Part shown: one piece after another, positions 3 through 20,013 of the stretch | Layout of the letters: each line of letters starts with the position of its first letter | Position numbering within the stretch: the first letter of the stretch is position 1 | NCBI GenBank assembly: GCA_905178155.1 | Contig: CAJINV010000039.1 | Coordinates: 1-24,444 of the forward strand | From: Amoebophrya sp. A120 | Lineage: Eukaryota; Protista; Dinoflagellata | Direction of reading: 5' to 3' | Length of the DNA stretch: 24,444 bases | Program-made: the position numbers and the translations under genes | The notes under the pieces: model-generated | Told to the model about the DNA's origin: nothing | Seen by the model: the letters and a program-made list of their open reading frames with translations, nothing else | Databases searched by the model: none

Positions 3-1192
3 GAGTCCGTGTGGCCGTGCGAGTTGCACTTTCAACTTCCGTCCACGATCGAGCAAGTTAGCTGGCGGCGCGAGCGGTGTGACGCATGTACTACCGGAGT
101 GCTTAGCAGTCTAGGCTCCTCAGATTCGGTCATCACTACAAACCCTATTCTTACCTACAACGAGAAAGGACGAGCTTGGGAATGGATTGAAGCCGAAGTG
201 CTAGGTCGCGTGACGGAAGTGGACACGACAACGGTGCGCATCCAGTTCTCAGGTTTTGCAGGAATGCGGTGCGTCTTTGGTCATTATCTCACGGGACGGC
301 TCGATCACGCACTCGAGAAGATCGAGCGGCGCGGTGTCCAGGTACAAGGCTTGCCGTGGCCGCATTTGAATGGCGAGTACGTGGTAACTAACCTGTCCAA
401 CTCGCGCTCGGGCACCATCCTGTCACATGTTGACAGCCATATCAGTCACACGACATTCGCCTCTCCACCCGCGAGAACCGCCCGCTTTGAGATGTCCGAC
501 GGCGTGTGGCGCCTTGTCGAGAAAGTCCAGAACAGGGTATCCATTCTAGCAGAAGGCAAACCGGGCGTCCGAGACTCGTATCAGTACTTGCGGACGACTG
601 GATCGTGGCAAACTGGCCAAAACTTTTTGGGCAGTACGGGGCAATTGTTTTTCTCTCCAGCTGGCGTGCAAATTTGGACCTCCGGCGTCACGAAGACCGA
701 AAATTTCGCCCAGGTTGTGATCTTCGCAATCGGGGAGCACTTGCATTTCCCGTACAAACCGCATGAGCCAGCTACTGGGAGCGGATTTTCGCCCAGCGCC
801 GCACCGTCGCGTGGAGCTGGGCCTTGGGCCAGTGTTGAGGCTCCTCCCCTGCAACTACCCTGGAAATGGATTGTGGACGGCGCCGACTGGCAATCACGAC
901 AAGGCGTGGTGCCGGGCACGTTTGTGTTGCAACCCCCGACCGTGGCACGCTATATCAAAGAACACTACGATCCTGATCCCGATTTTCTCAGCACAGAAAC
1001 GGAAACGCAAACGGAACTGGAGACGCCAAGTACAGCACGAGACAGCCCGCAGCCTCGATACTTGGTGTGGTTACGCGACACAACGACGACTCACGTCGGA
1101 CTACCACTTATCAACGAGAGCGGCTGCGCATACCGCACTGAGAGCGCTTTCTTTCCTCAGACTGGCAGCGAAGAAAGTGGCTGCCTGGAAAG
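3..1192 (+). CDS. Exon of giant SecA-like gene (5'-truncated; unknown N-terminal region)
   Basis: Frame is open from the window start through ORF 9..1229 and joins the next ORF in frame across an IR-bounded intron. No recognisable domain. Confidence 0.6.
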
Positions 1193-1599
1193 TTATCACA
1201 TTGAAAGGATTCCTCTAATTTCTTCTTAACTACCGACGAAAAGACCACCACCACTTTCATCTCCGGTGTAGAGTGCTCTAGGAATAAATTATTTGTTGCC
1301 TTGACGGACTTGTTGCTTCCGTCCGCACGTCAGGAAAGTAACGCCCTGAACCTTCGTAGTTTGTATTGATTCAAAGCCAAGTACTGGTATGCATGCAGTC
1401 CGAACACTATTTAATCGAATGCTGGTTTGTGATTGCAGCATGCACTCCTTTTTTTGCAGATCAATCTATGGACCTATTCTTGCCATTGCTTAGCTTCCCC
1501 GCATTTCCAGGTGTTGAAGCATTGGGAGATTGATACGCATGTTCCCCTTAGTTAGCATGACATGAATTGGGCGAGCAACAGCTTTTAAGGTGATAATAG
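1193..1599 (+). mobile_element. IR-bounded intron (introner-like)
   Basis: ttatcacattgaaag (1193-1207) matches the reverse complement of 1582-1596 at 13/15. Removing 1193..1599 (DR ag) gives CLERDIEFIIV. A GT-AG alternative 1192..1601 is also in frame. Confidence 0.65.
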
Positions 1600-2801
1600 A
1601 GACATAGAGTTCATCATAGTGACGGCCACTCCAGTGTTGTCTTTTCCGTCGTCAACGGCAGCTGCTCCCGAAAATTTTGTTCACGTAGACAAGATATGGG
1701 ATTGGCAGGTTCGAATTTACAGCTACACCGGTTATTGGGAAACGGAAAGTGGCGCGTTGCGTGCGAAGGAATTCGACTTTCACACGAAAGGTGGCCTTGT
1801 CTGGTTTTACGTCGACGCCCGCGAAGACAACTTCTATTTTGGCCGCGTTGATGTCACATTGTCGGCAGTGAAATACGAAGTTGGACGAACCGAGTCTGGT
1901 ACCAGTAAGCCAGGCCGCAGTACAAGGCTCGTTAGTGGACCAGCACTTCCCGACGTCGACGTCGGAGACACCGTGAGCAGCCACTCCTGCGCCAGCTGCG
2001 ACAAAAGAAACGTGACGAACGAAGAAGCCAAATCAAGCGCGTCAGTTGAAAAGTGCTGCTTGCCAGCAAAAGCGAGATCTTCGGTTGCCGCGGGCGATGT
2101 GGGTCTGGGTGACGCGACAGAATACAAAATAACGTCCTCTGATGAAGATCCTGCACCTGATACAGCCCTGGATTCTCTATTCCGGCTTCGCGGCCCTGCA
2201 GTTTTGGGGATCAATGCTGGGAAAATTGCTTCTGTATTGGCTTCCAAAAGGGTCGGGGAGATTTGCGTGCACCAGGCAAGAACTGCTCGTCTTGAAAATG
2301 AGCCAATAGCTCCACTAAAGTGCGTTGCGGAGCAACTGAAAAACCTCGCGGAGGCGGACTTTCTCGACGATGTTTCCAGTCCTGCTAATTGCTGGAGACG
2401 GTGGAAAAAAATGGCTCACGAAAAGTTTCCGAGCCTGACGAAGTACTTCGAGGAGATTATGGGAGGCGGGAAATCAAACGGGGCACAGGACGAAATCGTC
2501 AGTGTTTTCTCGCTCGCACTTTGCAAGTACTCCAGAGACGATGGCTCTGACGCGGCGAAGGACGCTCTTGTGTTGCTGGTAAAAGAAGGGTTGCCCTCGT
2601 TGCATGCGGCGTCGGAAGTAGCGAACTACTTCGACACCATAGAAGCCGGGATGAATTTTTGGCGCCTGCGGGAAAATCGCTCTCGTACGTTCTTACGAAA
2701 TGTCGTCAATGACATGGTGGTAGCGATAAACAACATTCAACCGCACCGCCGGTCGCTGCGGAAACTTCTCTTTACAATGGCGGCAATTGCTGAGAGGATA
2801 T
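1600..2801 (+). CDS. Exon of giant gene (aromatic beta-rich segment, then helical segment)
   Basis: Lies in ORF 1619..2839, whose frame is open back to 1589. Confidence 0.65.
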
Positions 2802-3442
2802 CCACCACATCACTAAGACCTCCACACACGTTAATGTAGTGCACTACTCTACAAGTAGTTGTAGTTGCTATTCGTCAAACAAGCACGGCGAAGAAAGCAC
2901 TTTACGGGTGGTACACTTGCACGATTATCTGTAAATAAAATATCCCACTTTCCTTGCAGCTCCTGTAGGTGTAAACGAGGTACCACATATTGTATTTTGT
3001 TTCTCTCGTCTCTCTCTCTCTCTCTCTTTGCCTTCGTACTTGCCAATCTGTCACCGTCAACGGTCGTCCCTAGAAGTAGCAGCCTCTGTGTATAAGGTAT
3101 CGCGACATTGCTGACGCTTGGGTGAGGTCTAATCATGCATACAGCAGCTCGCTTGTTCACGCAAATGCTACATGGTTTGAGGATGTTGACTCGATACACC
3201 GTGGCGGCTCAGAATACTCAGTGCCTCTGCACCGAGGATCCATGTTATGGACGGCAACACCGAACGAGTAACTGTAGCTGCATTGTGGATGTGTACACGT
3301 CGAAACGCTGCGCAATGTTTGAGTGTCGTGTGCGCAAAAAGTGCAATTGCCAATTGTGCATGATGTGCGCGCAAGAAGTGCATTCCCGATGGCCAAGTGT
3401 GCGCGTGGAGCAATTGTGCGCGCCAAAAGAAGTGGTGGATAT
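2802..3442 (+). mobile_element. Non-canonical intron with IR and 6-nt DR (introner-like)
   Basis: Perfect 11-nt IR atatccaccac (2798-2808) / gtggtggatat (3432-3442). DR ggatat at 2796-2801 and 3437-3442. Removal gives in-frame AERICQKTKK. Confidence 0.7.
3009..3026. repeat. (TC)9 microsatellite within intron
   Basis: Read directly from the sequence. Confidence 0.85.
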
Positions 3443-5928
3443 GCCAAAAGACAAAAAAATCGCAGCACTCGTACAGTCTTGTCGCTTCATGCAGAACCAT
3501 CGAATCCCTGCGGACAGCCATCTTGGACTATGGCATTGCAACCGATGATGAGAAGTCGAACTTTAGCCTTCGCAGTTCATCATCCCAAGCAGCGGAAGCC
3601 CCTCCTGGATATGTCGTGGAGCTGCATTACGCAGATCCGCTCTCCTTCGCCAGCACCGGATGGGACATTGGAGCCGGTGTAGTTTTGCGAAGTTCACAAA
3701 TTTGCGGGGTCGCAAACTCAGCCGCGGCAAAGGATCGCAAAACGCTCACAGCAAGTTTATCGAAGCACTGCACACAAGCAGGGAAAGCGAAGCAATTGAG
3801 ATCTCCTATACCACACCAGGAGCACGAGGAGAATATGTTCTACCCCGCGCATAGCACGGATGACGCCGCCCTTGGTCCTTTGCTTCACTTCGTTGTGTAC
3901 AGCCTCGATTTGAAAAGTTACCTGGGAACGCGAAACACCCGTGGCGCCGAGCGCCGAGACGAACACCAGGTTGTTGTGGAGAACGCGTGGACAGGAGAGC
4001 CATTATTGGCGCAGCCTCTCAGCCTGGCCTTCAAGTGGTCGAAGGAAGTGCCCGCCCTGACAACGGTGCAGCTCGCTTGGGACGAGCTACACCAGCAGTT
4101 GCTAGAGAAAGTTCTGCGTCTTCAAATCGAAAGTGCAACAACTGATCGCGCTGTTGATTACGAAGTTGTTGTACATGGCTCCTCCATCACGAAAGGGCTT
4201 CTTCGAAACGCAAGCCCCGACGGTACTCCTGCGGACAGCGCCGGGGGAAGCGCCGATGTTCTTGATGCCCAATCAGAAGGAGGAACAGCTCGCAACCAAC
4301 TGGCATTGGCACTAAACGGGCCTGCGGGTGCACTGTTTCTGCCTGAATCCCGGATTCGGTCTCTGGCCAATGACCACGATGCCTTCTGGCGCTGGGTTGT
4401 CGCACGAGACACAACTCGGTCGCGTGCTGTTTTTTTGCCTGCGACTGACAAGATCACTCTCAGATGGGATGCGAGGCCATCATCGATTACCGTTGCGTTG
4501 GCAGTACCCAACCTGCAGAAGAACGGCTCGGAAGCACTAGAAATTTCTGCACGTATGCCGCCTTTATCTCCATTTGGCGCCGCGGCCGAACTTCCAGCCA
4601 CTTTTCGTGAAGAGATCGTAGACGAGATATTCCGAAAAAGCCCCATTTTGAAGCAGTGCCCCCAGTTCCGTGTAATGCTAGATCCCGTACCAGGAGAAGA
4701 CACGACGAGTTCTCCGACCTCAACGTCAGCGTCTAGCGAGGGACCTGATGGGAACAGCATTCTCTTCGCACCCGGAGCAGCGACCCCGTACTTCGCGCTC
4801 GCTCCACGGGGCAATGGTGTGTCCAATGTCAGGGTGCGGTTTTTTCGTCCCGAGGTTTTTGCGGCGGAAGTGCCTTTCGGACCGACCAGGGTCTTGGAAG
4901 GCGACTTGATGCGGTCTTTCAGCACAAGTGACTTTATTGGTTTCACGAGAATCTCTTTGCCCACAGTCGCTGCTGATCGCACAAAAGCCAGATCCTCCTT
5001 GATCACTGCTGTGTGTTCCAAGCTGAGCGAATTTGCTGCGACAAACCACGGCCGACACGACGAGCGGTGTAGCGAAATGGAGGGAGGCGAAGATGGCATT
5101 CGCAAAAATCTCGCTATTTATCAAAGGCAGCAGGTGGGACAAGACGCCGATAAGCTTGTGCTGCTTCACTCCGAAGAAGGTCAGCACTCCTCTCCGTGGC
5201 TTTTTTCTGACGGGGAGGAGCTAGTCCTCCGCTTTCCCCGTCGCGAAGGAACCGCTGTCGAAGTGAGTTTCGAATTCCAGATTGGCGACGCGTCGGCAGC
5301 AACGCCTGCTGTTTCACTGGGCAAAGTGAGCGCAGTCGCGAACAATCACAGTGCAGCAAGCACAGTTTCGACGCAGTGGATTGCTGCCTTTCTGGGCGAC
5401 CTCACGAAATCTGTACCTGACGACGCTGCAACCGCGCAAAGGGTCGGTGTTGTTTTGCAAGCCTTAGCTGTTCTCTACCGACCATGGGATGAGAATGCCA
5501 CCCTTCGCCGAGCGGCACCACTGGAACTCGGCCTACTTCAAAGCCTTGAGAAACTTTTAATTCATTGCACATATCCTGGCTCGCCGGCTGCAGATGGCCC
5601 TCCGAGGAAAAGGCTCCGAAGAAAAACGGCTTCACGAGACTTCTTGGCGCGCAGTTCACCCGCTATGAAAACAAATACTGGTGGGTCTTCATCGGATGAC
5701 GACAGTGCCGCTGCACTCATCGCGCTCGAAGAGGACGTATTCGGCCGAAGATCTGTTGCGGATGCGTGGCGCAATGTATGCCACCTTGAGCATCGTGCGG
5801 CACCGACAAAAGCTGCGCCGGAGCCCACATCCACAATCCTCCGCAGAGGCGAAGCCTTTGGCTTTGCTCTTGCAGCTGGTGACAAATTTACATTGAAACT
5901 TATGCAAGATGTGACACTTTCTCACTCA
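3443..5928 (+). CDS. Exon of giant gene (~830 aa, unknown function)
   Basis: Lies in the 859-aa ORF 3397..5976. Confidence 0.7.
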
Positions 5929-6249
5929 AAGTCAAGGCACCCTCTGCTTGGCAATCGCTTGGACTCTGTAGGATGATTGTCGTCACACTTCAATACGCAT
6001 CTTTGCGCATGTGTGTGAGCATAGCAGTCGTGGTAGCCATCTTCTTACTCGACCTCTGCATTCGCGCTAGACCAGCGGGCAAGAGCATCAAACTAAGTAG
6101 TTCATCAACATGAACTAGTAGATGACGATGACTCTGCGCCATTATTTTCCCATGCTCTCTAATTGTGCCATCATCCTGATCGACAAAGGTGAAAAGTGAA
6201 ACTCAACCTCAGGCGACTTCGCGCTATCAGAGGTGCGTGGTGGCACTCA
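5929..6249 (+). mobile_element. Intron with degenerate IR and 6-nt DR (introner-like)
   Basis: DR cactca at 5923-5928 and 6244-6249. Nested IR blocks gcaccctctg/cagaggtgc and aggatgat/atcatcct. A GT-AG alternative 5931..6263 is also in frame. Confidence 0.6.
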
Positions 6250-6276
6250 GCCACCTCTTCCAGATTGCTATTGATA
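6250..6276 (+). CDS. Putative micro-exon (ATSSRLLLI)
   Basis: Same frame as ORF 6355. Followed by a 66-nt GT-AG intron (6277..6342) containing in-frame stops. The join reads SRLLLIYELHVTPP. Confidence 0.45.
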
Positions 6277-6342
6277 GTTTAGGTATCAAGAGCGCGGCTC
6301 TAAGTAAAGATCAGCAACCATTGTGAGTGCCGCAGCTGCTAG

Positions 6343-8013
6343 TACGAACTGCATGTGACTCCACCAAGCGATGGCACCCAAACAGTGCTGGGCGAGTTTC
6401 CTTTCCTCCCCTCGATAAAAATCGCAGATGGGCCTGTGGCGAAAGTATTTCAGAATCTGATCGCAGAGATGACAGCGCGCGTCTCGGGGCGCGGGCAAAA
6501 GCGGACTGCGGACAACGTAGAAGTTCATCAGGACCTCAGTGGATCGACACGATGGGTTTTCAGTTTGGAAACTTACTTGATGCAGGAGAAGAAGAAGAAG
6601 GTTGGGTAGCTGGTGCCGTCCGTCGATTCGCAGTCGCACGATTTGCTCGGCCAGTCGATCCAGCAGCAGCTGCAGATCGCTCTCGTACTCCTCACTGCAC
6701 TCCCGGTAGAGTCTGTTTTGGATGAGGCCCGCAAATTGTGGACCTTCGTGTGGGACTGCTTTGGGAGCGTTGCGCGATCTGTCGCAGATTATAGAACATC
6801 CCTCATTTCAACTTCGTATTTGATCGTGTGGATCTCCGCGGTGCAGGAATTTTCGGAGTCTATTGACGAAGTTCTGGTTGAAAACCACTTCCGACTTGCC
6901 ATGTTGCGGGCAGAAAAAGACAAAATTGTGAATACCACGTCGCAGGGAAGTTGCACGCGCAACGCCGACGGGGGGACAGGGACGTCTACCACAAGTGGAA
7001 CCAATCCTCCTGCAAAGGTTAATCTGGTACGTGGAAGCCCGCTCGATTTCCTGCTCCTGGAGAAAACTGCAATCGGGCACATAGCGACCCTGCTCACTTT
7101 CGACGGCTTGTTCACAGATCGGCACTTTGCCTCCGTTGTAGAGGACACACGACCGTCGAGATCGGATGCCCATCTCGCCGCTGGAGAGTCGAACAGGGCA
7201 CGCCCCCAAAAAGAGTCCAGCCGCCTCCTCGAGTTGCTGGTCTCTTCAAATTTTCAAGGTGACGAGGAAATGCTGCCCACTGCCTACTTGCCGGCCTTGT
7301 TTCAGGATACGCGAGCAAAGCTTGTCAAGATTCTCAAAGACCAGGTTCGAAAGCATGTCTCAAGCGGAGAAGCAGCCTACAAACGCCTGCGGGAAGGGCC
7401 ACACGCAATCGCGACATTGAAGCAGGTGTGTGGCGATGCCGATAATAACTCAGCGCGTATTCGCCTCGAAGCTTTGTTTGCACTCGAGCACGAAGCTAAA
7501 GAGAACCGCATTTCGGGGACCGAGTTGAAATCGTGGCTGCAAAAATTCAAATTTGAAACTAGAACAGGAACCACTACGACTACGTGTGCGGGCACGACGG
7601 CCGGTAGTTCGACGACACCAAGTTTCGTAGAGGCAAACTTTTCCGAATTGTGGGATCGACTGTCCAGTTCGTGGAACCAAGCTGCTCTGAATTCGCGACC
7701 CGTTCTTCCTGCAACACACGACGTTGGCACCGTTCGCTCCTCTACTGATTTTGCGATTTTTCGGCAACCGATCGTAGGAACTGAAAACACCGTCGCAGCG
7801 GTCGCGGATCAATTTATGCGAAGATGGGCGTCTATTCGTAATACTGAGGAACTCCACCGCAATTCCGCAGAAAAGCGCTTTTTGGAGTTTTGCAAGACGT
7901 CACGAGTGGACATGCAGAGCCGCTTCGCGGTGAAGCAATGGCTTGCAGCAGAGTTTGTGTCCTGGGTGAAAACCGCCGATCCTCCGGTTCCAAATTCCGA
8001 TATCAGAATGAAG
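6343..8013 (+). CDS. Exon(s) of giant gene; in-frame TAG at 6607-6609 is probably inside a short intron
   Basis: ORFs 6355..6609 and 6613..8043 share a frame. Candidate donor AAG|GT at 6601 with in-frame CAG acceptors at 6633, 6654, 6663, 6666 and 6669. Confidence 0.6.
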
Positions 8014-8173
8014 GTATCTGCAGACAGACTGTGGAACAAGTAGTTGAAGAGCACACGACAGCAGGGCAGTGCAAGAAGCCCGCCTTTTTGAAAAAAGCAT
8101 ACGAATGATCCGTCATACACTGACACCTTGTAGAAAAGCACATGTCTGATATTTCGACTTCTGCGCACTTCAG
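8014..8173 (+). other. GT-AG intron (donor 8014 or 7987)
   Basis: AAG|GTATCT ... CTTCAG|GCA, phase 0. IR atatcaga (8000-8007) / tctgatat (8145-8152) would favour the earlier donor at 7987. Confidence 0.6.
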
Positions 8174-8694
8174 GCAGTCATTCGCACGCGGCTAAAAGAT
8201 GCGAACAAAGGGCTGACGCTGAGTTGCTTTTCACATGAAAACAACAACACTGCTAGCACGACCTTGCACGATGAGGATCTCCCGCTCGTTTCGTCTGCGT
8301 CATTTACTCGCATAGAAAAATCACTGAATCTAGAAGAGCTTGATGCCATGCAAGAGAATATCGAATTTTCAGCCTTCCTGGACCTGCTGACTCGCAACCT
8401 CCCAGTTTTGCAGCTTGTTGTATGGGCGCCAGGCGGCGGTGAAACGACCGCGGATCGATGGAAAATTGATAGCATCTGGAAGCAGCGAGCGCCCCAAAAT
8501 ACGCAGAACGCCTTGCCCCCAGGCAGCGACAGTGATGAGCCTGTGCTAGAATTTCACTTCTTCAAGGAAGACCGAGAACTTGTAGTACAACCTGCAGCAA
8601 CGACGGATGGCGGAGACCCGGCTCAGCCTACGCCTAAACCGCAAACTAATAGCTCTGACGGTGAGGCTGCGCCGAAGCCACAGCCTCGAAATAT
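8174..8694 (+). CDS. Exon of giant gene
   Basis: Frame of ORF 8264..8728 is open back past 8174. Confidence 0.6.
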
Positions 8695-9074
8695 CGCATG
8701 TGAGTGGCGTCTTGATGTTTCCCACTAAGCTAAGCGACTAGTACTGGCAAATAATACACAGCAAAAAGACGAAGGGAAGATGCAAAGGTGCTCCGACGGA
8801 CTGAGCTTCAATGATCTTATGTTGCATCGTGTAGGTACAGCCAGTAGCGGTCCGGAACCCACAGTAATGCATGATACTGCAAAAGGAAACCCCGAGAAAG
8901 GAGTTGCGTCGGTGAGGCCTGAGCCGCTACCAGGAGATGCTGTTGATGTAGATTGCTTAACAAAAAACTCTGGTGCAGCGGCATGCCTGTTCCTTTGTTG
9001 TTGTGCTGGCTAAGTATGTATATTCGTAACAAAACTTTTAGGCTGCTGGAGAAACATCACACTTGAACTTCGAT
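8695..9074 (+). mobile_element. IR-bounded intron (introner-like)
   Basis: Perfect IR tgatgtttc (8713-8721) / gaaacatca (9051-9059), plus terminal atcg/cgat. DR at gives in-frame PRNMLLLAL. A GTGAGT donor at 8700 is an alternative. Confidence 0.55.
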
Positions 9075-10216
9075 GCTGCTTCTTGCACTACATTCCCTGG
9101 TATTGCTTCCGGAAGCGGCTTCAGTAACGGAAGGCGAGTCTGTCTCGGTGTCGGAGGATCAGAAGAGCTCGCACTCAAATGAGAAGCCTGCCGTTCGTGG
9201 ACAAGTTTGGTGGATGTGGAAGCTCCTAACACAGGTTCTCACAACGCTCATGGGAGGGCTTCCAGCGCCCTCGGCTGACTACCTCCAGACGAGATTTTTG
9301 GGTGCGCCCAGTACGATGCCGGAGCCCACACAGCAGCTGGGTCTAGAGTACATGTTTTCCGAGCTCAGCACAACGATTGTGCACACACACAAGCTCGACA
9401 GTACGAAGATGGAGGGCAGCGGCTTTCCTGAAGCTAATTCTGCGTGGTCCCACCTGCAGACCCACGTTAGGGATGAAATTTGCGTTGTGGCACGCGACAG
9501 GGCTGCTTGTGCCGTATCAAAACTGGAGGGGGTGCTTGCAGCAACGCTGGTTTGGGCAAACACTCCAAAAAATCTGCAGGTGCTGAAGGAAGCTTCTGTC
9601 GCAAAAGAGAAGGGTGAGGAAGCTACCAATACTGACTCTTCAAAAAGAGATCCACTCTCACAGCCTCAAAGCACTAGCCCCGCTCCGAATATGCGACCTT
9701 CACCTGCCGCTGCGCCCCATGGCCATTCGTCGAGCGGCACGCAAAATTCTGCAACTGCAATGGGTGCAAGTGCTGGCTCTCTACCTGGCGCACAAACAGA
9801 ATATGTCGGCTTTCACGACGTGGCAGAACTATTCCGGCTGCTCCAAGTGTCACGCCATGCTGGCGCTTTTGAACAGGCTTTCACTTTGTTATCCGATGGC
9901 ATGCCGCAGGACGGCGTTCAGGCACTTACTGCGGAGCTTCAGGTGATATGGCTTGCGGACCAGCTGCGGCACGCGAATCCTCGGCCGTCCGATATCGCTG
10001 GCATTGACAAGCATATTCGAAACCGCACGAAAACCATTCAGCAGTCTACTTCTTCCGCCGACGACTATACCTACGGCAATTTATCCAGCATAGAACTTGT
10101 CGTTTCCCTAGCAGTCTCCCCGTTCGCGGTAGAAGAAGTAGCGCAGTTTTTTGAGATCCTCGCTGCGCATACAGAAATTCTTACACCCGCTAAGGTTCTG
10201 GCAAAAATTAGAAGAT
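9075..10216 (+). CDS. Exon of giant gene (helical region)
   Basis: Lies in ORF 9073..10320. Confidence 0.7.
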
Positions 10217-10597
10217 GCGAAGTATCTCAAAGCCAATCACGATTATTCGCACCCGCACGCTCTCACTGCAGATTTACGTGCCTGCTTGTAATGCAGTTTG
10301 CATTGAAATGCGCAATGTAGTCCTGAATGCCCAAGAAAAAGAATTTGTATGTTCACTATGTATGCATTGATGTCTCTCGCGCGATGAGAGACCCTCCCCC
10401 TCCGTTGTTGTGACTATGAATAGCGTGCTTCCAAAATATAGCTGTACGGACACGCAAGATAAAACGCAATCTCTTCGCACCGGGACGGAGTCGGAACGGA
10501 TGCCCAGCACTGATCTTCCTTGTGTGCATGCTGAGCTCGCCTTTAGGTACTGCGGTGTGCCGGGTGCGAAGCTATGTTTTTCCATTTCGATACGCAT
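10217..10597 (+). mobile_element. IR-bounded non-canonical intron (introner-like)
   Basis: IR ttcgcacccg (10246-10255) / cgggtgcgaa (10561-10570), plus terminal gatgcg/cgcatc. DR at gives in-frame KIRRSAVSRG. Confidence 0.65.
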
Positions 10598-11546
10598 CCG
10601 CTGTGTCAAGAGGGGCGCCAATCTCGCTGAGAAACTGCAGCCAAAAGCTGATCAAGCTGGTCCTTGAACCGGCCCTAGAAGGATGGAATCTGCGCAAAGA
10701 TGAAAAAGAGCGCAAGGCACTCGACAGTCTCACATACGAACTTACTGGCGCCTGGCGTTCGCAGGAGGTCATGGCCGTGATCAAGCGCTTGCGGGACTCA
10801 GTGGCGGCGTTTCCAGAGGTTCGAGGGGTGCTAGAACTCTTGAATGATTACCAAATGGCAGAGGATTGGCGGCCTCTCGGAACTGGCATGCTAGGCCAGG
10901 AGCGCGATGACAGCAAAAATGCCACCCTGGTTAGTGTTCGCAGCGTGCAAGCGACCATCACAGAGTTCTTGAAAGTGACCGAACCTGCGAAGTGGAGCAC
11001 AGTCCTCCATTCGAAATTTGTGGCCATTCTTTTCCCCGGAAGCACAGAACTTTCTCCCGGAGCTGTCGCTGGGCACATCGAAAACGAGGCACGGACGCGA
11101 GCGGGCAGCACCAACTCGGAATTTTTGAAATCTGCAGGAGTGAACCTGCCGGCTAAGCACGACGAGATTGCGAGATTCCCCGTTGCCGATTCCCTTAACT
11201 GGAAAACTTGGGCAGACACCGTGCGCAGCAAGTTTGCTGCTGGAGAGGAAGTGGACATGGTCGAGGTTCTCGCTGTGCTAAAGTCTGGCTGGCACAAGAC
11301 TTTCCACGAAGAACTACGCGCTACACAAATGTTTGCTGTGATCACCCACCTTGACGCGTACAAATCCGGAACAAAAGGCAGACTCGGACAGGTTCCAACG
11401 GGTGAAGGCAAGACAGCCATCGTCGGCGTCCTCGCTGCTGCTTTGTCTCTGCACGGAAAAAAAGTCGACGTTATCACATCCTCGTCGGAACTCGCCAAGC
11501 CCCAAGCAGGGAAGCTAAGCCAATTTTTTCGCCGATTCGGCGTACG
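10598..11546 (+). CDS. Exon with SecA-like DEAD domain start and Walker A
   Basis: LRATQ ... GRLGQVPTGEGKT ... GKKVDVITSSSELA matches SecA xPxxVQ ... AEMxTGEGKT ... GxxVHVVTVNDYLA. Confidence 0.88.
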
Positions 11547-12007
11547 ATGAGCAAAAACAAGGATTGGTTTTGTCATGCGTTTCTACATCATACTTATTAT
11601 AGTATTAATACCCACGAGATAATTGCAACATAGCACAATAGCCTTGATGAACATATGAGAGCGAAATTTGATCGGCACAATTCGGTAGAAATAATCTCGG
11701 CGTTTCTATCCGAAGAAAGAAAAACGTCAGTCAAAGTCAAAAAGAGAAGCAAGATGCGACACACAATTGCCATGAAAGATGACGCAATACGTGCCGTTGC
11801 CGCCAGCAACCATGACTTTGCAGCGCAATACATGCTGCTGTTACGCTCATGGAAATCATTCTGCGTCAAAGGAAGATGAAGACGCAGGCAATGTTGAACA
11901 ACAACTGTAATTCTACATCATGAGTCTCATAGATACTAGTCGGACTCAGACTTTTCTCTCTTTTCTTTTCATACTCAACCTGCCTTGTTTTTTTTCGCGC
12001 AATGCCG
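11547..12007 (+). mobile_element. IR-bounded intron (introner-like)
   Basis: IR aaaaacaagg (11553-11562) / ccttgttttt (11983-11992). DR cg gives FGVRIGSDY. The exact junction is uncertain. Confidence 0.55.
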
Positions 12008-12679
12008 TATTGGGTCAGATTACATTCGGACTCCGAACAAGAAGGTGCGCTCGACTGGGACGAACACTAGATTTGCAGGCAGCGACGTGGTGTATGGTTC
12101 TCCCAGTCTTTTCCAGTGGGCTGACCTGCGACACCGATTCTCTCGAGAACAAGTTGAGGCACGGGATCGCGACACGCGGCCATACGACATTGCAATTATT
12201 GATGAGAGCGACTCTCTCATGGTTGACGGGACGGCGTCACAAGCATTGCTGTCAAGCCCGTTGATGGGCGCTCACCATCTACACAACTTCATGGCTTCCG
12301 TGTGGTTAATTGTGAAAGCGCAAAAGCAACATCTCAAGCAGTTCGAGGTGGACGGAGAGCTTTTAACTTTCGAAGTGCCACCACAGCTCCACACGATAGA
12401 GACTTGGGAAACATACAAGGACGTGCTAAAGGCGCACAACGTCTCCGTTCACGAGTCCCAAGCGATCGAAAACCGACGGGATCCGGAAACGGGGGAGCGT
12501 TTATACAAGTGTTGGACGGACTTTCTCACACAGAAGGTGGAGGAGGTGCTACGCAAGAGCGTCCGCGACTTCGAGTGGCACGCTAAGAGCCACCTGCCGG
12601 GAAAGAAGCTTACAGATGAGCAGATTTCGCAGGTCAGGCAAGGTGACGATCCGAACAACAACGACGTGGCTCCATATCA
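12008..12679 (+). CDS. Exon with SecA-like Walker B
   Basis: DVVYGSPSLFQWADLR (SecA DITYGTNNEFGFDYLR) and AIIDESDSLMVD (SecA AIVDEVDSILID). Confidence 0.88.
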
Positions 12680-13155
12680 GCGGCTCCATCACTTGAATCA
12701 TTATCATGATGGAAGTATCTTCCCTGCCAAGAGTCGGGCTGCAGCAACGTGAAGAACCTGCATTAACAAAAGCGTTGAGGTGCATGCATTTTTCAACTCG
12801 CGACACAGCCTTTCGCACCCCTTGCCTCTCTAGCGGAACTAGAGCGCCATATTTCCCTCTGTGAACATTTGTATAAATGTTAAAGTCTACTTTGACTATA
12901 AATCTGCCGGGCATGAGTCGCTCTAGGTGAACATGCATTTTTCTCGTCGGTGGCCACTACTTTGCTCAAGAGAATATAGAAGAAGCACGGTACGTCTTCG
13001 GCAGCGCTCCTAGATTTGATCTACTTACGCTTTTTTGAAAGATCACCCTTTTGCTCATGCAAGTGGAAGTGGCATGATGAAGTTATAAGCACAACTAGAC
13101 CGCTTTCGTTACGTACACCCTTGGAGGGAATAAGTTTTTGCCGCGATTGTGATCA
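12680..13155 (+). other. Intron, probably non-canonical with DR atca
   Basis: atca at 12676-12679 and 13152-13155 gives in-frame VAPYHRKFIVE. The IR is only gcggc/gccgc, and other in-frame junctions exist. Confidence 0.5.
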
Positions 13156-13363
13156 TCGAAAATTCATCGTGGAGCGAGGCATTTATGACTGGTCCAGAAA
13201 TTGCGTACACGCGCAGTTTATCTATGAACCTGGTGTGCAGTACCAACTTCGGGGGAAAGGCGACGGCACGAACATGGAGCTCAGCACGGTGGACGCCGAC
13301 AATACGGGCACTATCTCCGACTACCAGCAATACAGTGGTGGGCTGCACCAGATTTTGCAAATC
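13156..13363 (+). CDS. Exon matching the end of the SecA preprotein-crosslinking region
   Basis: VDADNTGTISDYQQYSGGLHQILQI resembles SecA VDEFTGRxMxGRRWSDGLHQAxEA. Confidence 0.88.
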
Positions 13364-13697
13364 TATGGCCCGGACATATCGTTTTTTTTCATCTCGTTCG
13401 ACATTTTTGAATAGCTATTTTGCATGCAGCTTCTGAGCTGAAAAAATGCATGAATGTGCTGGACAATTCACAATCTGATGACTACACATGTAGCTACACC
13501 TGTGAACTAGTCAGCCTGAAGCTATCTAGTCTTGTGGAATCGTGGGAAGCCAGAAGACTAGATAGCTTGAGATTAACTAGCTAGCTCATGACGTTGATTT
13601 ATAATATATTCGCACAAGCCAGCTCATGGCGATTATCCACGGCCGCAAATTTTTTCGAACGAGTTCGAAAAAAACCATCTGTCCGGGCCATAAAATC
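13364..13697 (+). mobile_element. Non-canonical fold-back intron / MITE-like introner with 5-nt DR
   Basis: Terminal IR tatggcccggaca / tgtccgggccata (13 nt perfect, ~37 nt imperfect). DR aaatc at 13359-13363 and 13693-13697. Removal restores GLHQILQI|KHGL. No register gives GT-AG. Confidence 0.92.
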
Positions 13698-16412
13698 AAA
13701 CATGGCCTCCGTATGGAGCAGCCTCAAAGTTTTAGCACCAACTTTCTGTCGAACGTCAAGTTCTTCAAGGGCTATGATCATGTGTTTGGACTGACAGGGA
13801 CGCTCGGTGATCAGGCTACGCTGAAGCTCATGCACGAAGTGTACGGATTAGACTTTTTTTTCGCGCCCGGCTTTAAGCAAAAGCAGTTTTACACTCTCCG
13901 GGGTGTTGCTCTGCACGGTAAGGACGCCGGAAAGACCTGGCTTGAGACCGTGGTTCGGCGCGGCCGCGCTGAAGCATTTTTGGGACGTGCGGTTCTGGTG
14001 GTGTGCGAATCCATCAAGAAAGCGGATGCCATACACCAGGCCTTCGAAAAAGCGGCAAAAGATGCAGCCGACCATGAGTCGGAGGGTGGGCCTGAATTGC
14101 CCGACGGCTCCAGACATAACGTATCCCTGTTCAGGTACACCGCAGAAGAGGAACGCGATGCTGCCGTAGAAAGGATCGTCCAGGCGGGTGACGTCATAAT
14201 TGCCACAAATATTTCCGGACGGGGCACTGACATCAAGCTTTCGGACGAGGTGGAAAAGAATGGGGGTATGCACGTCAGCGTTACGTTTATTCCAAGAAAC
14301 AAAAGAGTTCAGGAACAAAATTTCGGTAGAACTGCGCGGACAGGGCTTCGGGGCACAGCCCAGTTGATTGCGGAAGCAGAGAGAGATGTCCCTCCATCTT
14401 TGGGAACGGACGACGGTCGGGACACCCTGCTGCAGTGGCTTTTGGCACGACGCGACGCGCACGAGCGTAACAGCATTCGAAACGCACCAGAAGACATCCG
14501 GAAGACACTGAATAAGGACAAGGTGTTTGACTCCGCTCTGGCAATGCTTGCAGAGCTTTCGCTCGTCAGGCCGAAACCCAAACCAAACGCCCCCAAACCC
14601 GTTTTGGGAGACGAGTCCTGGAAGTCGATAAATCGCCTTGCCTTCGAGGAGCGGTTTGCTCTATGGCTGCTCGCAAGGGGCGCCGCGCTCGAAGACGCAG
14701 ATGACCCCGAGGTTTTCTTTGAGGAAGATTTTGCGAAACCCTTGCGGCAAGAGAAGGTCGGCAAAACTAGGGCCTCGTCGCCTTGTTTGCGACGACCACT
14801 ATACCCGCTCGTCACGAACCCGTACCACCTTGTCAAACAGGCAAACGAGGAGATAAAGTCGGGGCTCTATGATTGCGCCTTGCTTTTGCTCTCAAAGGCG
14901 TCCGAGCTGGACGCTGAATTCAGCGAAAACTGCAGCGGTGGTATGTGTGTTGAGGCCCGATACTCTCGCGGGTTCGCCCACGTCGCAAAACATAACAAGG
15001 AGAAGCCTGAAACCGAGTCCTCGTGCGAGACCCAGTACCCAAAAGTTCTTGCTGTTCTCAAAGAAAAAATTCTTCCACCATTAGACGCTGTAGATATGTG
15101 TTGCCATGGTGCTGGCAATGAGCAGGGTGTCTGTATCAAGGACCTTTTGCATCGTCAGGTCGACCAGCATCGTGCGATCTATCACGGAATGGTGCAACAA
15201 GTACAGTCTGTCATAGGAGATCCGGAGGCCGATTTTGATAAACGAAGGGAGCGGATTTCTGAGCAAATAGACAAAGCTGAAGACACGCTTCGAAAAAGCC
15301 GGAAGGAACGCGCAGAGTACGACAAGATGAGTGACGACGACCGCGTGAAATTTGTAAAAGACAGAGGGATAGAGAATTCCAAGCCTACCGACGAGGACCT
15401 CCGTAATCATCCGCACTTAAAAACCAAGACTGGTGCTTTGCTCGCCTTCGAAGTGCACGTAGTCATCAAAGACGACGAAATTGCAAACGTTGAAGAACAA
15501 CGCCGAGAGTTGCGCAGATCCCGATCCTCGCTAAGGAAAGAAAAACGACAATGCCGCAAAGAGGAATCCGCAGGAACCGCGCAATCGAAAAGAGTCTTGG
15601 GGCTGCTCCGTTGGGCTCGGGAGAACAACCAGGAACTCGGGTTCAAGCGAGTTCTCGACATTACACAAAAAGATGGCTTCAGGTATTTTGTCGGGCCAGA
15701 CCAGGACCACTCTGAGTTTGAAGCAGTTTCGAACATGCATAAAAAGTGGGGGTTAATTGGAGCGCCCGAGTTCGAGGTGTGTCCTCCGTTTGACCGGGGC
15801 GCCTTCGCAGTGTTGATTATTATAGGGGTGACGCAGATGATTGGAGGTGCGGCTCTTGCTGTTTTTACCCTGGGCGCCGCAGCCAACTTCGGTGTGGGCC
15901 TTGTGGCAGAGGGCGTGAGCGATATAATCACAGCGGTCAAGGATATCTTGATCAATCGGTCTTTCGACTGGGGTCGCTGGGGCGCGGAAAAAGCGGTAAG
16001 TCTGGTGTTGAGCCTCGTTACCGCCGGAGTGGGCGTGCTCAAAGAAGCGGCCCGAGTTGCGAACGCTGTGGTCAAGGGCACTGTGGAGTTGAGCAAGCGG
16101 ACCTTAACGGAGGGCGTAAAAGTCGTGGCCCGTACCGCTTTTAAAGTGATCATCAACGAAGGTGTGCAAGTTCTGGCGAAAGTCGCGGTATCGGACGGAC
16201 TCATGCCGCATCTAAAAACTGCAATCAAGGTGCACTTGAAAGATAAGGTGAAAGCTTTGTTGTCAAGCTCTGCTGAATTCGAAGCGCTGAAAGAGGCGGA
16301 TAGTGCGGCTGGAAACAGACAGAACGTGTCGAACGTTACAAAGGCTATTGAAAGTTTGTTACGCCCGGGACAGAATGTAAGTCAGGTCTTTCAGACTCTG
16401 GCAGGGGAAATG
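13698..16412 (+). CDS. Exon with SecA-like helicase C lobe, TPR-like and coiled region, and hydrophobic Gly/Ala-rich segment
   Basis: Motifs GLTGTLG, GRAVLVVCESI, IIATNISGRGTDIKL, GGMHV and RVQEQNFGRTARTGLRG (SecA GMTGTA, ATNMAGRGTDI, GGLxV, QLRGRxGRQGDPG). Hydrophobic stretch at ~15801-16034. Confidence 0.92.
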
Positions 16413-16920
16413 GTACCAAAACATGGACGCCCGCACCGCTCTATCATATTCATATACATGTGATTGTATCTTGGCAGGCGTTTCAGCTGCGACTTCCTAA
16501 TTAGTTTTATTGTCGCACTTTTTCAATGTCGGCGTAATCTCATTGCCATTTGTGCATAATGCGCGCTGCAGCATGTTCCTTCATACGATGGCTGCAGATG
16601 ACCGCTGCATGAGGAATACGCATGATCATCAAGATATGTGTTTCCCAGTGCTCACTACTAAGTGAGTCTGCGAACCAACTCAGCCACCACCTCTCTAGTG
16701 CATATTGGAATTTTCCAACACCAGCGAAAGGAATTATCTCCTTGCACCTGACTATCAGCACACAACAGTACGCGGAAAGATGATTCGCTAAGAATCATAC
16801 GTCGTACAGTTGCAGTGTGGGAGGGAGAGTTGCAGTCTCCTTTAGTCAAAACACCACAAGAATATCATGATAGAGCGGGGGGGGGGCGTTTGAGTGTAAT
16901 ACGATTTTGGATGCGACCAG
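16413..16920 (+). mobile_element. GT-AG intron with subterminal IR
   Basis: Perfect 12-nt IR ccgctctatcat (16436-16447) / atgatagagcgg (16867-16878), flanked by acgccc/gggcgt and ccaaaa/ttttgg. ATG|GT ... CAG|AGA, phase 0. Confidence 0.7.
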
Positions 16921-17147
16921 AGAGTCGCAGGAGCGCTCACGAAGCTCGGCTCGGGCTTAGCAAGTGCCACGAGACCGAGAGCCGGCGAGGCAATACAGGC
17001 AATAAACCTTGCGTTGACAGTAACAGAAGCCACGGCGCAGGTGACGCAAATCGCAACGAATCTAGAACCGCAACTGCTCAGTGTGATTCGGACGCTGCAT
17101 GACGAGCACAAAAAGGTTCTCGAATACGTAGAGGGACACTACCAAAG
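16921..17147 (+). CDS. Exon of giant gene missed by the ORF track (amphipathic helices)
   Basis: Open frame RVAGALTKLGSGLASAT...VLEYVEGHYQ bounded by AG and GT. Confidence 0.65.
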
Positions 17148-17810
17148 GTGCAGTGTTTTTTTCATTTCATCATGAATTGATATGCTAGTCGGGAAATGCC
17201 ATTATGATGCTGATGGATAATCAACTTTCACCAAAATAATTCATTTGACGACGCTTTCGCCTAAGAAAAAGATTTAGCATACAATGCGCAGCATCACTCG
17301 ATGATATCAAATGCGCAAGCAAGTGCTAAGGGGTGTACACATCCCGGCAACGGGGTGGTAGCCCAACATCAAGCGATATCAGCTGAGCGTGTGAGCCCTG
17401 CGCGGGGCGCCTGGCGACTCAGCTGCTGGGGCGTCTGCGCAACACTCCGCGTACGTGTCTCTATTCCAAGGAATTTTTCCTGGATGAGTTGCGAAATGAA
17501 GCAGACACTTATTGCACCCGCCAGACAGGAGTAAAGATACGAAATCGGATTTGTTTCAGTTTGGGGATGGCGCGCTTGGCCTTGTATGTCTCGCAGTTAT
17601 TGTGGTACAATCTCGCAGAGGGCCTCCGCTTCCGCATTTCCGATGATGCAGTGGCGGTGCCTGTCTGTGTTTCTCCTGACCTACTTCTTCATTGTGAGAT
17701 AAATCGCAGCCGAACCTTCCGACCTTTTTCATTCCGAACCATTTCCATTCAAGGCATTCTTGTGACACCAAAAAAAAAAAGTTTGGAAAAATAGAAAATA
17801 CAATATACAG
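17148..17810 (+). other. GT-AG intron with weak terminal complementarity
   Basis: AAG|GTGCAG ... TACAG|T, phase 2, gives HYQSARTS in frame with ORF 17941. Confidence 0.7.
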
Positions 17811-18600
17811 TGCGAGGACCAGCGTCGAGGCAGCAAATCCGCAAGGTGATGGGGACTCAGACCCGATCATACTAGCAAATAAGATAACCCGCGAAACGCA
17901 AAGAAGGATTCAGGCTGAGATAGGAGCTCCAAACGCAAGGATGTCGGCGCAGTGGCTTAAGAAATTGGAGCCAAACCAGATAAAGACCTATGTGAGTCTT
18001 GCTCATTATCATGAAGAGAAAAAGGCGGGGAGGGCCGGCCACGCCGCTTGTTTGACCACAGCATCAACTGTATTAAGCAACCAAAACCAAAACAGTACCA
18101 CTACTGGCGGAGCCGTTGAAATCCAGTCTGTGCCGCCACCACTTTCTCCTCCTGGTCGTTGGGACGCCAATTTTCACGCCGACGACGGACCGCAAGCGAG
18201 AGCCTCGATAAAACGCATGGGCCGCGGCGACGCCGAAGAGGAGCTTTCGGAGAAAGCAGCTCAGGGGGTAACAAATATCGTCGAGGGAGCAACGCTTGCA
18301 GTGTCGTCGACTGCTGCAAGCGCGTGGTGCGCGAAGCGCTTTAAAGATTTTGATGCAAAAACGATGCAGTCTCTCGATCAGGTGCATTCCGTCAACCGCA
18401 TCACTGCTAATTCCGCTTCCAGCGACAACGCCGCGCAACAGCATGCGCAAGCACACGCGGCCGAGACCCAGGCAGCTGCATTGGCCGGCTTATCCAAACA
18501 AGAGCGACGCGAGGCTAAGCGCGCAATGAAAAAAGCGGATATGCAAGTGGCTGGAGACGTTGCCGCCGGGCTTACGAATGATGGCGAAGCGGGTCTTCAT
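17811..18600 (+). CDS. Exon of giant gene (linker before protease-like domain)
   Basis: Frame of ORF 17941..18630 is open back past 17811. Confidence 0.7.
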
Positions 18601-18888
18601 ATCATATGTAAAAACGTCCCCACCCCATAGTCAAGATGGCAAATCTGCTACACAAATCTCCAAGTTTTGGAAGTTGTGCATGACAAGTGTGCCCCTGCAG
18701 TGTAGTGCTGTTTAGCAAGGGAAACTGCATAAGTAAGCCGTTTTGTCATCCTGTTTACAGCGTCACAAATTTTTCCAAAACACGGTCGGAAATAGCTCTC
18801 TTGGTGGAGCTGCGCATTATAAATGTTCGCGTCATTGCACATTTGCGTGACAACTGGGGTGGGGACATTTTTCCTCAGGATACTTCAT
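18601..18888 (+). mobile_element. Non-canonical intron with IR and 6-nt DR (introner-like)
   Basis: IR gtccccacccca (18616-18627) / tggggtggggac (18855-18866), extending to aaaaa/ttttt and tatc/gata. DR cttcat at 18595-18600 and 18883-18888. The join gives EAGLH|HLGEAAHVVGRPIVV. No GT-AG register. Confidence 0.88.
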
Positions 18889-20013
18889 CACCTTGGCGAG
18901 GCTGCGCACGTCGTCGGGCGACCAATCGTCGTGCGCGACAAGAACGGAGACTACGTCACCACACTGGGAAAGGGGCTTCCCGGGGAGCCGGTAGACCTAT
19001 CGCACAGCGTGAATGCCGATGGATCGGGACACTGGTCGCTAACGCGCGAGGTCCGGAACCCAAACTATTCACCCCCTGGTCAGGCGGGAGGCGTAAATAA
19101 TTGCGCTTTCAATGCTATCGCTGCTGCCGTCTACGGGGATCAAGGTCGTGGTGGAGAACTTCGAGGCAAGACTGTGGCTGCTATTGCGAAATCGCCGGGC
19201 CGCATCGCAGCTGTTGCCTCAGATATACGCCGCTACCAGCACTACATGGGAGGAAACTGGAAGAAAGAAAACGGCCACTACATGGTGCTATCCAAAAAAT
19301 CTCCCATGTGGACAGACATCGTGAAAAAGGCCCGAGCAAAAAACGCTTTGTTTGAGGATATCGACGATAGCAAAGTCGAATTCATCGAGATTCATTTTTC
19401 AGCGAAGGGAACCACAGGCACGGGGGCCGATGATTTTGGATGTCACCTTACCGGCGTCCCTTTTTGGTCAAAGCAAACGGGCACGCACAAGAGGCACGTC
19501 AAGGAAAAGATGCACTGCCACTACGAAGCCAACACGAAGACGCACACAGAACATGGACGCGCTGCGGATGCCAAGAACTACGGAAATAATATAATTGTCT
19601 ACGCGCCCGCTCACAGAATGAGCCCAAGCCAAGCTGCGATGAATACCGAATGGCCGAAGCACGGCTCTCTTTATAATGATAGCAGTCACCTAGCGCGCTT
19701 TCACCGAGAAATCCTACAACAGGCGAGGCTCAATTTATTGAATGGACTGCAAAATGCCTATGCGAACAGCAAAGGGCGTGGGAAGCCGCCATACCCGATG
19801 GGTCCCGATCCAGATGGAAAGGTGATTGGATTTCCGAAAACCAAAGCAATTGCGAAGCATGCGGCGAACATCTTCGGAGCTAACCCCAACGCGTTTCTCG
19901 GAGACCGGAACGCCAAAGATGCAATTTTTTTTCTAATGCAACACATGGAGGACGGCCGGTTTTTAAACCAGCCTGTCGGATTCTGGAAACAGGTCCAAGG
20001 ACAACGTCGGTAA
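18889..20013 (+). CDS. Last exon: permuted OTU-like protease, GG motif, His-rich C-terminal domain
   Basis: GRPIVV ... GHW (His at 19030) ... NNCAFNAIA (Cys at 19102) ... ELR ... YMGG (GG at 19249-19254). Stop TAA at 20011-20013. Confidence 0.78.
   Translation, partial: HLGEAAHVVGRPIVVRDKNGDYVTTLGKGLPGEPVDLSHSVNADGSGHWSLTREVRNPNYSPPGQAGGVNNCAFNAIAAAVYGDQGRGGELRGKTVAAIAKSPGRIAAVASDIRRYQHYMGGNWKKENGHYMVLSKKSPMWTDIVKKARAKNALFEDIDDSKVEFIEIHFSAKGTTGTGADDFGCHLTGVPFWSKQTGTHKRHVKEKMHCHYEANTKTHTEHGRAADAKNYGNNIIVYAPAHRMSPSQAAMNTEWPKHGSLYNDSSHLARFHREILQQARLNLLNGLQNAYANSKGRGKPPYPMGPDPDGKVIGFPKTKAIAKHAANIFGANPNAFLGDRNAKDAIFFLMQHMEDGRFLNQPVGFWKQVQGQRR

Follow-up and report, generated by a model that had tools for sequence, protein, structure and literature searches.

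Host Gene and Reading Frames

The stretch of DNA analyzed here, a window of 24,444 nucleotides on contig CAJINV010000039.1 of Amoebophrya sp. A120, raises the question of how a coding sequence broken repeatedly by inserts could still give a continuous message, and whether the repeats at the ends of these inserts take part in their removal. In our view, the window probably carries a giant SecA_DEAD-like gene from which 12 inserts are likely spliced, at least three to four of them with inverted-repeat ends and a likely origin as introner insertions, and one lacking any GT/GC-AG option near its homology-based junction, with pairing of the insert ends likely assisting the process.

On the + strand, 13 long reading frames are separated by 12 breaks, with inserts of ∼150–700 nt, eight of which change the frame. 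The breaks are numbered B1–B11 and B13, the candidate B12 having been dropped as it lay within B11. The gene and its inserts are as follows (IR, inverted repeat, with the share of matching positions in brackets; DR, direct repeat).

3–20013, + strand: SecA_DEAD-like giant gene, modeled with 13 exons, its 5′ end beyond the window
1192–1601, + strand: insert B1, IR 1193–1207/1582–1596 (13/15), TAT-N7-AAA at both ends
2796–3442, + strand: insert B2, IR 2798–2811/3429–3442 (13/14), 6-nt DR GGATAT overlapping the IR
5901–6609, + strand: insert B3, IR no better than chance, GT-AG available in frame at 5911–6609
8001–8173, + strand: insert B4, TAT...ATA at 8001–8151, 8-bp IR, 5-of-6 DR, 157-nt removal
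8692–9100, + strand: insert B5, 9-bp IR 8713–8721/9051–9059 inside a longer imperfect stem, no DR
10223–10573, + strand: insert B6, perfect 10-bp IR 10246–10255/10561–10570 continuing inward, DR of at most 3 nt
11542–12044, + strand: insert B7, within the SecA_DEAD domain, 10-bp IR 11553–11562/11983–11992 and a longer G-U-containing stem
12697–13156, + strand: insert B8, degenerate IR, 5-nt DR ATCAT
13359–13697, + strand: insert B9, the clearest element, with DR AAATC, a TAT...ATA element at 13364–13692, and DR AAATC again
13507–13580, + strand: 31-bp hairpin inside B9
16413–16920, + strand: insert B10, subterminal IR 16430–16447/16867–16884 (16/18), no DR beside the IR
17148–17810, + strand: insert B11, without an IR, the best reading being a canonical GT-AG intron
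18595–18888, + strand: insert B13, DR CTTCA(T), TAT...ATA element at 18600–18882, 28-bp IR (23/28)

The working model comprises 4,891 codons with zero internal stops and has all helicase (catalytic) motifs intact. It matches the Pfam families PF07517 (SecA_DEAD) with 40.2 and 26.3 bits against a curated cutoff of 24.6, and PF21090 (P-loop_SecA) with 34.9 bits against a cutoff of 27. Its best protein relatives are the SecA_DEAD-like g19694 and g10264 of Amoebophrya sp. AT5.2 (41–44% identity in the core), and most frames are collinear with two AT5.2 proteins (P0002 and P0003) from ∼9200 to 19250, across breaks B6–B13; the inserted stretches are absent from the relatives. Looking for an annotated protein belonging to the window itself gave no result. 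This is likely a giant SecA_DEAD-like gene of an Amoebophrya-type parasite. The window contains no marker gene, and among the matches listed in a literature search on the host gene family, no paper was found for the term “SecA DEAD”. A retroelement lies directly downstream of the gene.

Nearer the 5′ end, P0002 and P0003 give weak matches at 5164 and 7348, the second frame (1589–2836) has no relative among 7,990 candidates, and the third (3364–5973) has no match in the Atlas. The first two or three exons presumably belong to the same gene. As no relatives were detected for the first frames, B1–B3 could be gene borders, which lends some weight to a reading of the frames as several separate genes; alternatively, stop codon reassignment, which the available part of PMC11453091 reports in a single strain of Amoebophrya, might let the breaks be read through. 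We regard such readings as highly improbable, since 8 of the 12 inserts shift the frame while the exons contain no in-frame stops, the relatives do not have the inserted stretches, and the first Met comes only at codon 275 in the frame after B1 and at codon 158 in the frame after B2, as in internal exons.

It is likewise very unlikely that the gene is a dead copy gathering MITE insertions that are never spliced. B9 and B13 do resemble ordinary MITEs with target duplications, and the retroelement is an immediate neighbor. However, every one of the 12 breaks is a long insert, and across about 4,890 codons there is neither an isolated stop nor a small frameshift, where 17–37 stops would be expected at 3–7% neutral drift (as estimated from arm divergence, assuming initially identical arms), and the catalytic motifs are undamaged.

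Repeat Enrichment at the Breaks

An earlier note on this DNA had described about ten IR-bounded introns in one gene. Taking 132 mismatched end pairs as the control for IRs joining both ends of one break, same-break IRs lie at the 95th percentile or above in 7 of 12 cases (Mann–Whitney p = 6 × 10⁻⁴). Those of B2, B9, and B13 exceed all 132 controls (3/12), and those of B1, B6, and B7 lie near the 95th percentile (for B1 alone, p is about 0.06). With wider zones, 8/12 reach the 95th percentile and 4/12 exceed all controls, B10 being added (p = 6 × 10⁻⁶). Taken singly, the IRs of B4, B5, and B8 are within background, and B3 and B11 have no IR above that of the mismatched pairs. The enrichment holds for the breaks taken together, but only three to four of them are individually significant. 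Four further IR pairs (a 12-bp IR at 8068/9089, and those at 12502/12875, 15944/16636, and 18276/19369) were taken as chance, having an arm in a homologue-supported exon or spanning an exon.

The direct repeats are perfect over 5–6 nt at B9, B13, and B2, over 4 nt at B1, and at 5/6 positions at B4; B5, B7, and B10 have no DR adjoining the IR. The same note had placed an IR with a 2–6 nt DR at most breaks, which 11/12 breaks do show under a loose criterion (IR score ≥8, DR of 2–3 nt; binomial p = 5 × 10⁻⁵ with DR ≥3), but so do 44–62 of the 132 mismatched pairs, such that this criterion is not diagnostic for any single break. Its further statement that removing the element plus one DR restores the frame stands for four breaks (B1, B2, B9, and B13), where an IR scoring ≥10 is joined by a DR of at least 4 nt that restores the frame and lies no more than 8 nt from either IR arm, a combination found in 0/132 mismatched pairs. 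As a general statement it goes too far: for each break, ∼10,500 junction classes restore the frame, and ∼800 of them have canonical ends or a DR ≥2 nt.

A TAT...ATA IR is abutted by a perfect 5-nt DR at B9 (AAATC) and B13 (CTTCA), and by a 5-of-6 DR at B4. These are the only three such combinations seen, all at breaks, compared to a mean of 0.1 and a maximum of 1 in 200 shuffles. We note that this null is somewhat lenient because, of the seven TAT...ATA IRs scoring at least 9, three lie away from breaks, in excess of the shuffle mean of 0.8. In addition, a codon model blind to the repeats places exon ends no farther than ∼12 nt from the DR or left arm in the case of B1, B2, B5, B7, B8, B9, B10, and B13, but it missed the acceptor of B9 (13608 vs 13693) and set the donor of B6 ∼40 nt ahead of the IR.

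Canonical and Non-canonical Junctions

B9, with a 38-bp IR (33/38 matching) and a 334-nt removal, provides the firmest case for a non-canonical junction, judged by protein homology. Here, the DR junction ranks first of 4,245 by pairwise homology and first of 3,871 against a 196-sequence profile, at 119.2 bits compared to 101.3 bits for the best GT-AG, and GT/GC-AG options rank near 400 of about 4,000. The junction has six equivalent registers, every one of them neither GT/GC-AG nor AT-AC. Judged from protein sequences, 138 of the 203 relatives fetched run through this site without interruption, and 49 carry identical residues there.

Non-canonical junctions are also favored at B8 and B13. At B8, homology favors a 449–473 nt removal with non-canonical ends, the best canonical junction ranking 402 of 8,370 (pairwise); the profile gives a rank of 100 of 6,161. 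At B13, where the 288-nt removal has non-canonical ends, the DR junction ranks 6 of 3,512 (pairwise) compared to 51 for the best GC-AG, and the profile gives ranks 42 and 61 of 2,957. Homology further favors removal of ∼493 nt at B10. This ranking covered B4–B11 and B13 and was uninformative for B4, B5, and B6.

B11, in turn, is best read with ordinary GT-AG sites, its junction ranking 5 of 4,161 by homology and the codon-model signal shifting at 17146 and 17808. A short exon at 17513–17791, suggested by an IR at 17152/17509 with DR TGCA, was rejected, since homology and codon model favor the single intron 17148–17810. Elsewhere, the choice is wider. The B1 junction is ambiguous between GT-AG at 1192–1589, GT-AG at 1192–1601, and a DR-based cut. 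At B2, a 641-nt removal with non-canonical ends restores the frame, GT-AG alternatives lie 30–50 nt off, and no homologue anchors the junction. The B3 insert may harbor an extra internal exon. B4 has a consensus-like GT-AG alternative at 8014–8173 (160 nt) and B5 several GT-AG options, whereas B6 has zero in-frame GT-AG and six GC-AG options. At B7, the candidates are non-canonical removals of ∼467–476 nt or GT-AG at 11542–12044. With ordinary GT-AG sites in use at B11 at least, and perhaps also at B1, B3, B4, and B7, the gene would be mixed in junction type. Overall, in-frame GT-AG options lie near 10/12 breaks and GC-AG options near 11/12 (with the windows for B6 and B9 set by hand). Thus, the claim that many of the introns are non-GT-AG is borne out firmly at B9 and favored at B8 and B13, but as a general statement it is unproven.

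These observations bear on a further reading, in which the IRs and DRs are merely DNA-level transposon footprints, and nearby GT/GC-AG sites, either borne by the elements or co-opted, are spliced while the hairpin is idle. In its favor are the in-frame GT-AG sites close to 10 of the 12 breaks, the canonical B11, the consensus-like GT-AG pair at B4 and two GT-AG pairs at the IR ends of B1, as well as arms without G-U bias. Set against this, B9 has no nearby GT/GC-AG, the best such option costing 18 bits and breaking a conserved motif, non-canonical junctions rank higher at B8 and B13 too, and non-canonical introns make up more than 60% of those with RNA support in strains A25 and A120. We therefore consider this reading unlikely, though by no means far-fetched; its idle-hairpin half would be compatible even with non-canonical junctions.

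End Motifs and Kinship of the Inserts

Apart from a single match of 25 nt that links inserts 2 and 10 (E ∼ 10⁻³), the insert bodies are unrelated, which makes independent insertion plausible, and no second copy of any insert was found in insert–insert comparison or in one metagenome scan for the B9 end motifs. The three metagenome loci matching both of these motifs had no likeness beyond the pattern and were dismissed as chance. The ends, however, have more in common than the earlier note allowed in stating that no IR was seen to be shared between introns and suggesting independent insertions from different families. The left arms of B1, B4, and B13 agree at 10, 10, and 8 of 13 positions, TATC(A) recurs at several insert ends, and TAT-N7-AAA, the motif published for A120, occurs in the correct orientation at each end of B1 and of B13, accounting for 4 of its 13 matches in the window, where it is only mildly enriched (13 vs 8.05, with 13 reached in 5/100 shuffles). 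At B2, B4, and B9, TAT...ATA occurs without AAA. In 9/12 cases, TATC lies within the 80 nt that close the upstream frame (p = 5 × 10⁻⁴ against non-coding background), a motif chosen post hoc and with at least one match (B7) exonic; TAT alone is not significant against the non-coding background (p = 0.18). The shared TATC(A) ends argue against wholly unrelated families and suggest that the elements are related or have a mobilizing or recognition signal in common.

Proposed RNA Pairing and Origin

The splicing of the inserts with help from pairing of their ends, which we prefer, could have arisen as follows. Small TIR elements, non-autonomous and ending in TAT...ATA, would have entered coding DNA, each insertion duplicating ∼5 nt of target. 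Since a copy of the duplication stands on either side, cutting at any point within the duplication takes out the element and one copy, and the original message is restored. A TIR with a 5-nt duplication, as in MITEs, is present at B9 and B13. At B4–B8 and B10, presumably older insertions, arms and DRs would have decayed. A hairpin may then join the ends for a permissive spliceosome; in the available part of PMC7789003, U1 snRNA is undetected in the Amoebophrya spliceosome.

Terminal stems are predicted in 7 of 11 folded inserts, with arms preselected as the best IR and no matched control, and whole-insert folding was excluded as independent support. Duplex energies are enriched overall (p = 0.003, with 4/12 below p = 0.05) as a consequence of the IRs. 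Among the 15 mismatches between IR arms, two are G-U compatible, two A-C, and 11 other, and with so few G-U compatible the arms bear no sign of RNA-level selection. These observations neither demonstrate nor exclude the suggestion that RNA pairing of the intron ends defines the splice sites. A more specific proposal, which we consider doubtful, is that TATC(A)...(T)GATA ends together with an end-to-end RNA stem would form the splice signal of a U1-independent route, retained though the DRs decayed. If so, one gene would span the range from fresh elements (B9, B13) to eroded introns (B5–B8, B10) removed by structure and not by GT-AG.

Comparison with Known Systems

The phenomenon is already known from the available parts of PMC7789003 and PMC12130899, including 16 introners in one gene, so that this locus mainly contributes a clean example, as well as an illustration that standard gene finders would break up such genes. 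How Amoebophrya removes non-canonical introns is still an open question in the parts of PMC7789003 (section 16) and PMC11282704 drawn on here. B9 would be a good test substrate, because a conserved motif fixes its junction, no canonical alternative lies nearby, and the 38-bp stem suits compensatory changes.

The closest parallel is provided by the introners and non-canonical introns of Amoebophrya A25 and A120 (Farhat et al. 2021, PMC7789003, as far as its text was available). The earlier reading as Amoebophrya introners is supported, with AT5.2 proteins closest and the IR/DR layout and TAT...AAA ends as in that work. Shared features are an IR at both ends, a short boundary DR, variable ends (non-GT-AG at B9 and probably at B8 and B13), a length of a few hundred nucleotides, a mixture of canonical and non-canonical introns in the same gene, and the A120 IR motif TAT-N7-AAA, carried here by B1 and B13 at each end. 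In contrast, the arms of B9 and B13 are 38 and 28 bp rather than 8–20 nt, the DRs 5–6 rather than 3–5 nt, and the density ∼0.8 rather than 1.4 introns for each kb of coding sequence; moreover, the published introners are RNA-supported and repeated in the genome, whereas the present inserts are known from the DNA of one window.

Many introners within one gene are likewise described for A120 by Gozashti et al. 2025 (PMC12130899), the available part of which includes a single gene with 16 introners of seven families and lists families of the TIR type whose ends are mostly non-canonical; of two window motifs, neither occurs in the portion of its supplement covered (file 9 and rows of files 7 and 8). 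The available text of PMC12787238 adds nothing on introners.

Outside this genus, the nonconventional introns of euglenids and the TIR/TSD introns of Fritillaria (PMC11282704, in part) resemble the inserts in their TIR-paired ends, TSD-like repeats, and non-canonical junctions, but their consensus ends (CAG/CTG and AG-AC/AT, respectively) are not seen here. The classical introners of Micromonas and Aureococcus (available parts of PMC7789003 and PMC11282704) are similar in being MITE-like, with TIR and TSD within coding sequence; they retain canonical splice sites, unlike B9, which has none near its junction, whereas B1 and B4 could be of this canonical type.

The Host Gene and Its Frames

The plus strand between positions 3 and 20013 holds 13 long open frames separated by 12 gaps, the breaks B1 to B11 and B13, with the DNA at each break referred to as the insert of that number. 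Three of these frames exceed the Pfam cut-offs for SecA_DEAD or P-loop_SecA, and the closest relatives, once a record that is labelled as ostracod and repeats a domain is set aside, are the Amoebophrya sp. AT5.2 proteins P0002 and P0003, which are collinear with the window from ~9200 to 19250 and match weakly at 5164 and 7348. Homology searches detected no relatives of the first frames, and their putative assignment to this SecA-like gene rests on a late first Met and on the inverted repeats (IRs) joining the insert ends at B1 and B2. A spliced model, with junctions that are illustrative except at B9, comprises 4,891 codons with no internal stops and with every helicase motif present; its inserts sum to 5,335 nt (GC 46%, vs 54% in the exons), and 8 of the 12 change the frame. 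Had the exons drifted by 3–7%, the divergence of the IR arms on the premise that these were identical at the start, 17–37 stops would be expected, and since none is present the gene is likely alive.

By source names, this giant SecA-like family is patchy among the relatives fetched (P0001–P0203), spanning protists, animals, and Rickettsiales-type bacteria, with varied additional domains (PF14414, PF12639, PF13930, PF02338, and PF02902). The last exon, within 18823–20010, gave no match in a Pfam search; it holds an Asn-Cys motif, also present in P0003, that may resemble OTU-type proteases.

Repeats at the Breaks

The earlier note had described IRs and flanking direct repeats (DRs) at most breaks. 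Because IR scores of 9–10 are common throughout the window, and 2-nt DRs with frame restoration are trivial to find, we paired the left zone of each break with the right zones of all others, giving 132 mismatched controls. The true IR pairs outscore these (p = 6e-4, or 6e-6 when the zones are widened), with 7–8 of the 12 breaks reaching the 95th percentile and 3–4 exceeding all controls. A strong IR with a frame-restoring DR of at least 4 nt occurs at 4/12 breaks and 0/132 controls, while a loose criterion (IR ≥8, DR ≥3) captures 11/12 breaks, yet also 44/132 controls. Stems of TAT...ATA form, using the start published for strain A120, carry a flanking DR in three cases, all at breaks (B4, B9, and B13), against a shuffle mean of 0.1 (n = 200), a null that is somewhat lenient because 3 of 7 strong stems sit away from breaks. 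The earlier observation is real, though overstated: 3–4 elements are clear and 4–5 suggestive, but at B3 and B11 the control revealed no IR above background.

The insert bodies are mutually unrelated, bar a single stretch of 25 nt on which inserts 2 and 10 match (88%, 3346–3370 vs 16542–16566, E about 1e-3), the insert 2 copy lying in a degenerate repeat region directly inward of the right arm. The claim that no IR is shared holds only in part: the left arms of B1, B4, and B13 match one another at 10, 10, and 8 positions out of 13, and TAT-N7-AAA stands at both ends of B1 and of B13, with TAT...ATA ends also in B2 and B9. Since bodies are unrelated but ends partly alike, the sequences fit several element families inside one terminal-motif class. 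A single metagenome scan turned up no B9 copy; an IR-bounded element on a metagenome contig (L003, 57–409) has 12–13 nt in common with the B9 arms but was judged not to be kin, given an IR that reaches farther outward and a body of different sequence.

Further features lie within individual inserts. At 12712–12982, insert 8 has a weak TAT...ATA stem (12716–12978) between perfect GAAG repeats, followed by ~60 open codons that lack a match in the relatives, and may be composite. At 11654–11973, insert 7 has TAT-N7-AAA motifs in facing orientation, possibly a nested element. In the 2950–3030 part of insert 2, a pyrimidine tract, AG at 2958 and 2967, GT at 2969–2981, and a CT microsatellite make a canonical micro-exon possible.

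Splice Junctions and Proposed Removal

Frame-restoring junctions were ranked by similarity to relatives at 9 of the 12 breaks and by profile at four. At B9 (13359–13697, 38-bp IR), removing the element and one AAATC ranks 1 of 4,245 by similarity and 1 of 3,871 by profile, vs 397 and 401 for the best GT/GC-AG options; the junction is non-canonical in all six equivalent registers, and 138 of 203 relatives are uninterrupted there. On this sequence comparison, we firmly assign B9 a non-canonical junction. At B13 (18595–18888, 28-bp IR), the DR junction ranks 6 of 3,512 vs 51 for GC-AG by similarity, but the profile, built from two sequences, places it only at 42 vs 61 of 2,957. Non-canonical joins are also favored at B8 (best canonical rank 402 of 8,370 and 100 of 6,161). 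B11 is best read as a GT-AG intron, 17148–17810 (rank 5 of 4,161), with which a codon model agrees, and the similarity ranking was uninformative at B4–B6. B7 has two candidate readings, a non-canonical removal of ~467–476 nt and a GT-AG intron 11542–12044, and at B10 homology favors ~493 nt. The proposal that many of the introns are non-GT-AG is firm for one junction; elsewhere, non-canonical ends are at most candidates on DNA evidence, as in-frame GT-AG pairs lie close to 10 of the 12 breaks.

We infer that the elements are mobile: small non-autonomous TIR elements likely entered coding DNA, duplicating about 5 nt, an architecture seen at B9 and B13. A cut anywhere inside the duplication would restore the message exactly, and removal is likely spliceosomal, with an end-to-end stem probably aiding it. 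Folding of 11 inserts predicts such stems in 7, as expected since the arms had been chosen as IRs, and mismatches between the arms are not skewed toward G-U (2 G-U, 2 A-C, 11 other); the earlier note's suggestion that pairing of the RNA ends defines the splice sites is therefore a hypothesis.

Comparison with Known Introners

Downstream of the gene lies a retroelement-like region (21844–24442, plus strand), with a 38-bp hairpin upstream of its frames (21596–21674):

21844–22587 and 22568–23116, plus strand, gag-like frames overlapping in different frames, weak zinc knuckle
23120–24442, plus strand, pol-like frame separated from the gag-like frames by a single TGA, weak integrase core

Together, frames and hairpin may recall the TIR-flanked Copia-like family 38 mentioned in PMC12130899.

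That introners are known from Amoebophrya is borne out by the literature. Farhat et al. (PMC7789003) describe introns that are >60% non-canonical in A25 and A120 and nearly all canonical in AT5, IR/DR-bounded introners (252 families in A25, 1,954 in A120), the A120 motif TAT...AAA, genes mixing both intron kinds, hairpins bringing exon ends together, and U1 snRNA as undetected there. Gozashti et al. (PMC12130899) present a single A120 gene with 16 introners from 7 families, and euglenids and Fritillaria appear as parallel cases in the review PMC11282704. The locus is a new example of this already described system.
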